Positions 9,285 to 14,533 are shown, counted from the stretch's first letter. The stretch: 32,000 nt of DNA from an uncultured archaeon (GCA_964648855.1 CAZYLT010000002.1:1-32000), one strand, 5' to 3'. Translations and numbers: made by a program. The notes: a model not told the origin generated them from the letters alone.

Positions 9285-12200
9285 ACAAAGCATTCCAAAT
9301 TGCTCTTCGCGTCTCTATTCTCTTCATATTAATGAAGAACAAATGGCTTGGACCCCGCGTTATAATAGCACTACCATTTTCAGCTATAGGAAACGGTCAA
9401 ATTCCTAATGAAACACCAAGGCGAAATGAACAGGCCCTAGGATAATGTAGTTGATGAATACCATGATCTGCTTCTAATAACTCGCAAACGATAGTGCAGA
9501 ACGTTGCTTAGTGAACATAAGACCTTCTTCTTGTGCTGGTCATCAAAAAGTGGCAACTCGTTGTGCCGGTTGCGATGATGAAAACACCATTCCGTGCATA
9601 TGATGCTTTTATTCATGTATTGTATGCATATGGTTGGTATTTCAATTCGTCAAATAGCTCTTTATCCCCAAACCGCTCATTACGATGTTATGAGTTCTCA
9701 GAACCACTGAGGGTATACCTTTAGTATCATTGTAACCAACACAATCCACAGAGGTTAATCTATCAATGACTCCTGTGTGTAAACTCTCCGTAATCTCCTT
9801 GATTTTCCCAAGTCCACCCTTAGACTTGGGATTATTGTGCCTTTTTAGACACAATCTGGACAAATTGAAGAGAAAATAATGCACCCGAGTGGAAACTCTG
9901 TCGGCTTATCTCAGGACAATGAGAGGGGGCTTTCATTTGGATAGGAATACAAATGCGGAACGAACTCTATTTGAACTTCGTGCTAGTCATGAATCAGTTT
10001 TGCTACTGGTTCGGTTGGTTTTGGCAGACTCCTCCATCAAGAATATGGAGTGATTACTATGAGAAAGCTCCGAGAATTCAATGAACAAGGTGATAAGAGA
10101 AGCAAATTGGAACGCCTCAAAAGGAATATCCACTCTTGTATACTGACGGAAGAGGAAAATCTTGCATTACTTGACGAGCATAGCCGAGAAGAGAGTGTAC
10201 CAAGTTACAGGCAAGACAGAAAAGAGGGTGAGTCAACTGGTCAACATAATGAGATACGAGAAGTCACAGATCAGACTGCAAGCAAAATCAAGGCACAATT
10301 AACAGATGGCAGTGACTCGTTCTATTATTCAGAAGTTGAATCTAAAGGAGAGCTAGAAAAAGAGCCTTCAATATCAGAAAATTTCACACGAATTAGAACA
10401 CAAGACGATCCGACCATGACTCGCCTGTTGAATAATACCATTATATCAAAAACAAATGAACGCATTAGAATATCTATTCCTAATCCTCTGGGAGGATTCA
10501 CAATTGAGCTAGATGGCAGTTCCATTGAAATTGATGAAACAATAAGCGAAAAGAAGATTCGCGATATTTTTAGAAAGGCTCTACACCAATGCGACCTGAC
10601 ATATCGAAAGAGGAAGCGAGGCGGTTCCTACTATGTCTATAACAACGGCCTCTTTGATATCCACGAACAAGAGTATTTGCAGGAATCCATGTCCACAGTG
10701 CTCAGACTACGACATTCTTATTTCAAAACTGTTGAATCCATATTAACTAGTAAACCACCATCATTTCTAGGTAATCACTGGGGCTCATCACTCTATTCGC
10801 TTTTGGTTGAACCATTAGAAGGAATTCCTTCAGACCTTCAAAGCAGACTTTATGCAGACTTTGTGAATTCACTTCGTTTGGCAATCAAAAAATCAAGGAA
10901 TGAGCCTGCGTCGTTATCAATAGAGAATCTGTCTCATGACGAGTTAGTAGAATTCGCCAGTTCGTATTCAGAAGAAGATGAAATACTACATAAAAACGAA
11001 TTCTATTCCCAATTATCCCGGTATGAAGAGCCGGAAATAGTCTCGTTGAAGAATCAGGGAATCTTCTCGATTAATGAGGTGTTTGAAGATTTGTTGGATT
11101 CATTCATCCGCCCTTCTAACTCCCCATTTGAAGAGTCCTTATTGGATGAACTTTCCTCTTCCTTTCTGGACCGCCAATTGTCAGCATTATCATCTTGGGA
11201 ACGAGCTTTCGGAGATTCACCAAATTCAAAAAGAAGCAATTTCATCTTACGAGCCTTCAACATGGAAATGTCTTGGACAATAAGCATTCTACTGAGTGCA
11301 TTTTTCCTAAGAAATCGGGATTTTGCGCAATATAGATTCATCTCGGAATCTGAGTGGCTGAATAACAGTCCGCAGGACTGTTGGGCAATTATAAAAAGAC
11401 GCATTGCGAGGTTCTTGAGAGCAGAATGGAGAGATTGGGTTAGAAATCCGGTTGATATGCGTGGTGTGCTAGAATTTGAAACACGTTCACGTTTCAATGC
11501 GTTAGGTGCATATAACGACTTCTTGTTATCAACAAAAGAGGGTTCCGACCTACTTAGTCCATCTAACCTCACTTCCTTTTCTAAGGCAGATAGGAATGTC
11601 CGAAAGAAGATACTTGAACAGGCTTGCTCGACTCATCGCATATTCAGAAAAGAGGTTTTTGACCCATTCATCCAGCATAAACTTTCAGAGAGCAAGGCCA
11701 TTACGAAGTGGTGGCATTTGATGAATCAAAAGCCAGAAAGCTATATTGGCTTCACCATAATGCGGGCATGCCACGAGGGCTATAGAGAGTTTGTAGCAGT
11801 TTATGTGCCCAACCAAGGTGTTTGGATTTCCGGCAGAAAAGAAGAATCAAACTGGACCCCGATTGGCAATATGGGAATTGGGCAAGGCAAAGGAAATAGT
11901 CGCAGTGCTGCGAGTTCTGACCATTGGTCTTCATTTCATCGAAATACCACTTATGGACTTCCTCGAGCATGGTATTTCTCGGAAAACGATAGCGGAAAGT
12001 TCCACGTCGATTTCTTAGCGATGGCCTATCCACTTGCAGAAGCTCTGTTTACAGCCAAGGACTTACACGATGCTGAGAAAAGGCTTGCCGGCCCGAAAGA
12101 ACGAAGGTTGATTCAAAGTTTCTTCGCAAAAGACCGAAAGGAAGACTCTCCATCAGTTGGTGAAATGGTCCTTGTATCGGCTGATTCACTTGTATCGTCC

Positions 12201-14533: not shown

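Follow-up and report, generated by a model that had tools for sequence, protein, structure and literature searches.

Archaeal rRNA genes carry BHB introns of the I-DmoI and I-PorI type, in which the gene of a LAGLIDADG homing endonuclease lies inside the spliced intron. In the icd gene of E. coli, e14 is an integrative element with a tyrosine integrase and with an identical core at both of its junctions. The mORFs of fungal mitochondria, described in atp6 of Allomyces macrogynus and in atp6, atp9, cox2 and nad3 of Glomus, create 'gene hybrids', where an ORF whose endonuclease activity is biochemically proven brings along a foreign gene end and the native end that it displaces matches that of the sister species (PMC3630166). 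In phages, collaborative or trans homing is described in the accounts of F-CphI (PMC6083498) and mobE (PMC2790892), in which a free-standing endonuclease gene lies beside an ORF-less intron that splits its target.

The window analysed here, a stretch of 32,000 nucleotides from an uncultured archaeon (GCA_964648855.1, CAZYLT010000002.1:1-32000), carries an insertion in the RNA polymerase gene rpoA2 with an orphan gene inside it, and the layout of this cassette, when compared by analogy, mirrors that of the fungal mORFs and of phage collaborative homing. As in the mORFs, a mobile ORF sits in an essential gene, a diverged foreign gene end takes over and the native end is displaced; the cassette is patchily present among close relatives and the native end still matches the sister taxon, which is the combination that characterizes a mORF-type cassette. 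Unlike the mORFs, which replace the 3' end, the rpoA2 cassette replaces the 5' end as a mirror image, has a 30-nt BHB intron joining the replacement and native exons and carries up to 15 kb of cargo, while its orphan ORF of 1300-1400 aa is neither LAGLIDADG nor GIY-YIG, a nuclease role being proposed here by analogy. With collaborative homing it shares an ORF-less intron at the presumed target site and a free-standing gene that adjoins the interrupted host gene, both travelling together; unlike there, the intron is a protein-spliced archaeal BHB intron and not a self-splicing group I intron, a host exon is duplicated in the cassette and no known enzyme family was matched. The archaeal host, the BHB splice signal and the precise, duplication-free insertion recall the I-DmoI and I-PorI type introns, but those sit in rRNA genes, hold the endonuclease within the intron and carry no exon copy. 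Like e14, the element brings a synonymously diverged copy of the end of its target gene, which stays functional; unlike e14, it has neither an integrase domain nor a core shared by the junctions.

The interrupted rpoA2 gene and its sister elements

The RNA polymerase operon of the window comprises rpoB (2910-6344), rpoA1 (6346-9003) and rpoA2, which is interrupted and extends to 15745, followed by the genes for L30e, NusA and S12. The insertion and the parts of rpoA2 on its two sides are arranged as follows:

9018-9282 (or to 9284), + strand: N1, the native first 87 codons of rpoA2 and the first base of the Phe codon, displaced and ending in TAA
9283-10058, no strand: left non-coding part of the insertion, 776 nt
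10050-14306, + strand: orphan gene P0001, an uninterrupted ORF of 1418 codons from GTG
13350-13950, + strand: conserved core of the orphan protein (residues ~1100-1300), with 71 of the protein's 250 invariant positions
14307-14533, + strand: AT-rich spacer between the orphan gene and N2, the presumed site of the N2 promoter and RBS
14534-14795 (or to 14797), + strand: N2, the element-borne replacement first exon of rpoA2 (87 codons)
14796-14825, + strand: putative BHB mini-intron of 30 nt, the right-hand end of the insertion
14826-15745, + strand: native second exon of rpoA2 (trigger-loop His onward), matching Pfam RNA_pol_Rpb1_5

N1 is native and N2 is foreign in origin. N1 matches Pfam RNA_pol_Rpb1_5, reads AGG-ACA as in the uninterrupted alleles and not CGC-ACA, is 88% identical in nucleotides to the gene of the same-genus genome G001 and falls with it in a 100/100 clade. 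N2 lies on a long branch, being only 67% identical both to N1 and to G001, and ends in CGC-ACA-T like all six intron-adjacent copies. To G001, the native second exon shows 86% identity, about as much as the left flank does (89%).

The first-pass annotation had described the orphan ORF as the sole intact cargo, and for the window's insert this held, as the only other frames in 9283-14533 either lie antisense to the big ORF, as its shadows, or are at most 80 aa long and lack homologs in the sister elements. The left part of the window's insertion has no ORF longer than 80 aa, none with a homolog in other elements, and no Rfam match. Relics of earlier rpoA1 or rpoA2 pieces nested in the cargo regions were looked for and none were found.

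The order rpoA1, N1, variable cargo, big ORF, N2, 30 nt and rpoA2 C-terminal part was found in the window, in G022 and in three metagenome contigs, and in the partial context of G062 the big ORF starts within ~100 nt of N1. All genomes are metagenome assemblies; five of them, independent of one another, have the arrangement on one contig each, so that binning cannot have produced it. The lengths of the insertions are 5,543, 7,100, 8,981, 10,633 and 20,002 bp. The big ORF is the last gene before N2 and, in an all-against-all comparison, the only protein common to the 5.5, 7.1, 9.0, 10.6 and 20.0 kb versions. It had been proposed to see whether its homologs are consistently flanked by duplicated housekeeping-gene fragments or occur in unrelated contexts; duplicated rpoA2 fragments flank it in five of five complete contexts and in the partial one, and every context that could be read is an rpoA2 insertion.

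To the left of the big ORF the sister elements carry 0.05-15 kb of variable cargo, which differs per element and includes HTH proteins, an ABC transporter, HerA-like and KaiC-like ATPases, an 1858-aa LamG protein, a polysaccharide deacetylase and IS110 transposases. The IS110-family transposases (DEDD_Tnp_IS110 and Transposase_20; L004:9081-10397, - strand, and L042:4259-5584, + strand), which are 52% identical to each other, lie inside the elements of G022 and G062 and are absent from the other four (2/6), and are most likely secondary passengers. The 20-kb element has a gene for a 905-aa HerA-like ATPase (DUF87, HerA_C; L049:4109-6826, - strand, or L007:7297-10014) that shares 14 nt with the start of the orphan gene, suggesting that the two form one operon, in the 20-kb version only.

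Site-specific mobility and the mini-intron

The rpoA2 insert is demonstrably mobile and site-specific. A near-identical pair of alleles, empty in G021 and filled in a JGI contig, differs by an insertion of 20,002 bp. The empty allele reads ...AGAACAT/TCCACTAC... (the slash marking the bond) and the insertion of the JGI contig lies at that bond, ACAT/TCCAC. The flanks are 98.8% (left) and 99.6% (right) identical and no base was duplicated or lost. The nearest mismatches to the insertion point lie 184 nt upstream and 362 nt downstream, and no co-conversion tract was seen beside the junction in the G021 and JGI flanks. The junctions of the filled allele, ACAT/GAGATT and GTGAAA/TCCAC, have no common core of 2 bp or more. 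As the filled right flank matches the empty allele exactly from the end of the 30-nt intron, both N2 and the 30 nt belong to the inserted block. The N1 copy in the JGI contig is identical at 245/246 positions to the uninterrupted G021 gene, as against 67% for its N2.

Within the genus g7, filled (G022, G062), solo-intron (G007) and uninterrupted (G048, G056, G066) alleles were all found, and in the family at large the majority of genomes with a match have a single uninterrupted rpoA2 of ~400 aa. The insert occupies a fixed site with a precise junction, and close relatives have empty as well as filled alleles, traits that together correspond to the homing class of elements. Two full-length uninterrupted rpoA2 genes were present in G054 (contigs G054:C26 and G054:C143), which is probably a strain mixture or bin contamination.

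The mini-intron was found at six loci, namely five elements and the solo intron of G007, with a 9-bp stem that shows compensatory and G-U changes, a constant AUUUC loop and constant flanks. From the predicted helix GCAC/GUG(U/A) with 3-nt bulges on either side, we read the 30-nt insert as a putative tRNA-type BHB intron. In canonical 37/38 tRNA introns the cut falls after the second bulge base on each side, and predicted removal of 14796-14825 recreates ACA-TTT-CAC (T-F-H of the trigger loop), restoring LRT-F-HYAGV. The CGC-ACA needed for the intron helix was present in 6/6 intron-adjacent copies, in 0/28 uninterrupted alleles and in 0/6 N1 copies (0/5 in the main count; the sixth N1, of L007, ends in AGA-ACA). 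This distribution indicates that N2 is co-adapted with the intron as one module and that N1 comes from an uninterrupted gene. The mini-intron of G007 differs by 1 nt from that of G022, and no homolog of the orphan protein was found in the G007 assembly, which is 92% complete.

A further 30-nt insert lies in rpoA1 of L008 (L008:2512-2541), between ...DGYPIE and SGIMDPR..., with in-frame stops. Its 9-bp stem has one G-U pair and its ATTTC loop is that of the rpoA2 mini-intron. The insert is probably another BHB mini-intron, the second of the polymerase operon. The split rpoB of G007 was considered as a second intron and rejected, being a single in-frame TAA (DVLIGRT*PPRFLEE; L039, ~12100-12110, - strand) at a sense codon of the relatives, which could be a sequencing error, a pseudogene or recoding.

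The orphan protein and its conserved core

As had been read from the sequence at first pass, the orphan ORF runs from 10050 to 14306 on the + strand with zero internal stops, D, E, K and R make up 47 of the first 120 residues, and no TM helix is present (best 19-residue Kyte-Doolittle mean 1.33); the protein is soluble. Its likelier start is the ATG at 10059, which has a Shine-Dalgarno-like GGAGTGA 5' of it and gives 1415 aa, also the length of the stored database record P0002. The gene has a GC content of 42%, compared to 47-48% in the neighbouring and flanking polymerase genes. Five full-length homologs (1295-1411 aa, 38-41% identical to the protein of the window) have frames open across 1295-1411 codons, and dN/dS is 0.147 for the closest pair of the family (L008 and the partial G062 copy, 72% identical). 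The ORF is thus not a chance frame, and it is under purifying selection. The G062 copy is frameshifted into two overlapping frames (L042:3-1418 and 1321-3744), which is either a decaying copy or an assembly error.

The family has ~7 members of 40-72% identity, all from Thorarchaeota (Asgard archaea); the closest named homolog belongs to Candidatus Thorarchaeota, and the titled contigs likewise. There is one copy of the gene in the window's own genome, and among 40 relatives a copy was found in G022 only. A scan of GTDB species genomes added the G062 contig and one partial Thorarchaeota contig, and a scan of metagenome contigs gave no additional locus. A five-sequence profile searched against 1.84 billion protein representatives returned family members and two fragments only, and a word-indexed search of 5.8 billion proteins returned the family itself only. 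No match to the orphan protein was found in IMG/VR, INPHARED phages or PLSDB plasmids.

The whole protein and four overlapping pieces of it were searched against Pfam, NCBIfam, PHROGs and PADLOC with zero useful matches and no nuclease, recombinase or DNA-binding family detected; Pfam gave none for the four pieces at E up to 10, and no useful match for the five homologs. PDB sequences did not match the 1054-residue family profile, and their only hit to the conserved core was a type-2 IPP isomerase (E 0.63, not significant).

The protein can be divided into a variable, charged region (residues 1-365), a conserved middle (365-1100) and the most conserved core (1100-1300). This core has a high concentration of invariant D, E, H, K and R residues, including D1118, E1143, E1145, E1154, H1155, D1203, E1221, K1247, H1260 and D1290-H-R, and may be an active site. 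The three C-terminal motifs pointed out earlier (GQSSEHFF, RWPYDIVYF and SLQLES) are present at residues 1150, 1199 and 1217 in the numbering from GTG and fall in this most conserved block, where E1154, H1155, W1200, P1201, D1203, E1221, S1222 and T1223 are invariant across five sequences that are ~40% identical. The GQIDKLVYIE stretch (residue 966), which had also been singled out, fared less well than the C-terminal motifs, as its Y973 and E975 are invariant but its D varies. Compared with PD-(D/E)xK folds, the protein has an invariant WPxD1203 with E1221-S-T 18 residues on; the position of the lysine is Thr in all members. YDHRLP recalls the DH..P of HNH, with no conserved Asn or His after it.

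The order of strands and helices predicted around D1203 and E1221 fits a PD-(D/E)xK core, in a part where both structure models have a pLDDT below 40. AlphaFold2 gave a mean pLDDT of 45.3 for residues 365-1418 (5 sequences) and 39.8 for residues 1090-1418 (8 sequences). Foldseek of these low-confidence models against PDB and BFVD gave nothing above background, and VIA-align of both against 48,161 chains gave a best Z of 6.6 (a helical hairpin) with TM at most 0.1; fold searches from models of such low pLDDT are uninformative about the real fold of the protein. Compared by hhalign with a 16-sequence alignment of Mrr_cat, the sole PD-(D/E)xK family compared by profile, the probability was 0.5%, equal to column-shuffled controls, and with 16 NurA sequences of Thorarchaeota it was ~1% (shuffled controls 0.1%), which we call background level; the self-comparison control gave 100%. 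In ESM Atlas features the best score of the core was 0.89, to unnamed clusters, Mrr_cat_2 clusters at 0.84-0.85 lay inside the range of shuffled sequences, and the middle region had no named match.

The charged N-terminal motif of the family (LTPxD..EIL.E.RLLSEEER) was also seen at the start of a protein of G062 (L048:1459-1630 of G062:C24), with 57% identity over 42 residues, and this protein has multiple sigma-70 region-4-like HTH repeats.

Role of the orphan protein and rival explanations

The orphan protein is probably the enzyme that moves the rpoA2 cassette. A cassette which repeatedly hits one phosphodiester bond needs a specificity factor, and this points to the big ORF, the only gene that always travels along. 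As it is always flanked by rpoA2, is the only gene common to all inserts and lies in an insert that is mobile and site-specific, it is the best candidate for the mobility factor, as the first-pass annotation had proposed; that part of the proposal stands by context, while a nuclease or recombinase family was undetectable by sequence. Because the layout mirrors the fungal mORFs and resembles phage collaborative homing, we give about even chances to the ORF encoding the enzyme that mobilizes a homing-type cassette, a site-specific nuclease or insertion enzyme, with a DNA endonuclease as the most likely kind.

In such a homing cycle, the recognition target would be the uninterrupted rpoA2 at the trigger-loop codons (...ACA T/TY CAC...). 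The orphan protein would cut the empty allele, the break would be repaired from a filled allele, and the block of cargo, big ORF, N2 and mini-intron would be copied into that bond. In the filled allele the site would then be destroyed twice, at the junction of N1 with the element and, by the 30-nt intron, at that of N2 with the C-terminal part. The host would survive, as N2 and the native second exon would give an intact A'' mRNA after the tRNA-splicing enzymes remove the intron, and the mini-intron may thus play a double role, as a device for splicing out and as a disruption protecting the filled allele. A solo intron of the G007 type could be the outcome of recombination of N1 with N2, or of a repair in which N2 is the left homology arm. 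That the orphan protein cleaves DNA, that the copying goes by repair and that the intron protects the filled allele is what we infer from the arrangement. Known homing endonucleases are five to eight times smaller than the orphan protein of 1300-1400 aa, and this size counts against homing, as do D1203...E1221-S-T without a lysine and the frameshifted copy of G062.

With no co-conversion tract beside the junction, a direct insertion mechanism fits equally well, and a new site-specific transposase or integrase, which would insert by direct strand transfer and recognize a subterminal hairpin at the right end as in IS200/IS605, IS91 or Helitron-like elements, was weighed as an unlikely alternative. 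It would account for the clean, host-identical flanks without target duplication, for the constant right end (ORF, N2, hairpin and 6-7 nt) beside variable and unrelated left ends, for a gene at the element end next to the junction, the usual place of integrase genes, and for large versions with plasmid-like cargo (HerA-like ATPase, KaiC-like ATPase, HTH proteins). However, no HUH, DDE, tyrosine or serine recombinase domain was found, all known copies are at one site with a single copy in the window's genome, and the G-U pairs of the hairpin point to constraint at the level of RNA and not of DNA. For a tyrosine or serine recombinase both a catalytic domain match and an identical crossover core between the junctions were missing, attL and attR lacking the common core of at least 2 bp that conservative recombinases need, and for a DDE transposase neither a target-site duplication nor a domain match was seen. 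Rather unlikely, in our judgement, is that the protein is cargo with a function other than mobility (addiction, defence or modulation of the host) which keeps the cassette, the insertion being carried out by host recombination or by an enzyme encoded elsewhere. The want of a recognisable catalytic family agrees with this, as do the very large size, the variable charged N-terminus with short LTxEER-type repeats that also starts the multi-HTH protein of G062, and the overlap of the gene start with the HerA-like ATPase gene in one element. Against it, the ORF is the only gene kept in all versions, including two minimal ones, and targeting of a single bond requires a specificity factor for which no other candidate travels, the IS110 transposases being present in only two of the six elements. 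A maturase-like helper acting on RNA in the splicing of a relaxed BHB intron appears very improbable: the gene is always just upstream of the intron-containing gene and the outer helix of the intron is weak, but G007 keeps its near-identical mini-intron with no homolog in its assembly and similar 30-nt introns occur in other genes without the orphan protein, such as rpoA1 of L008.

To return to the mobility enzyme, we would put forward only as a doubtful proposal that it represents a new family of very large enzymes that cut or insert DNA at specific sites, outside the six known homing-endonuclease families, and that it may have co-evolved with a host-spliced mini-intron and a portable exon and so become able to settle in the catalytic centre of the one RNA polymerase that the cell has. 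In a bolder version, the enzyme might find its target via the element-borne exon copy or its transcript. Should the protein prove to be the mobility enzyme, the archaeal lineage closest to eukaryotes would have yielded a new sequence-specific DNA enzyme of unusual size, and its target would be the trigger-loop codons of the largest RNA polymerase subunit, which hardly vary across archaea and eukaryotes. The cassette would also offer a concrete route for tRNA-type introns into protein genes, by landing, exon-copy recombination and the 30-nt intron left behind as in G007. The system lends itself to direct tests, since nature provides the empty, the filled and the solo-intron allele.

Apart from the insertion, the polymerase operons have other genes of note nearby. 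Downstream of rps12, the window encodes a subtilase (18622-20478) and two SBBP beta-propeller/TSP3-repeat proteins (20603-23329 and 24632-26659), and this cargo (18622-26659) has no homolog of the orphan protein. In the Ga0315535 contig, a gene pair of the IS605 OrfB/TnpB type (L005:14997-16213) lies between rpoA2 and the L30e gene.
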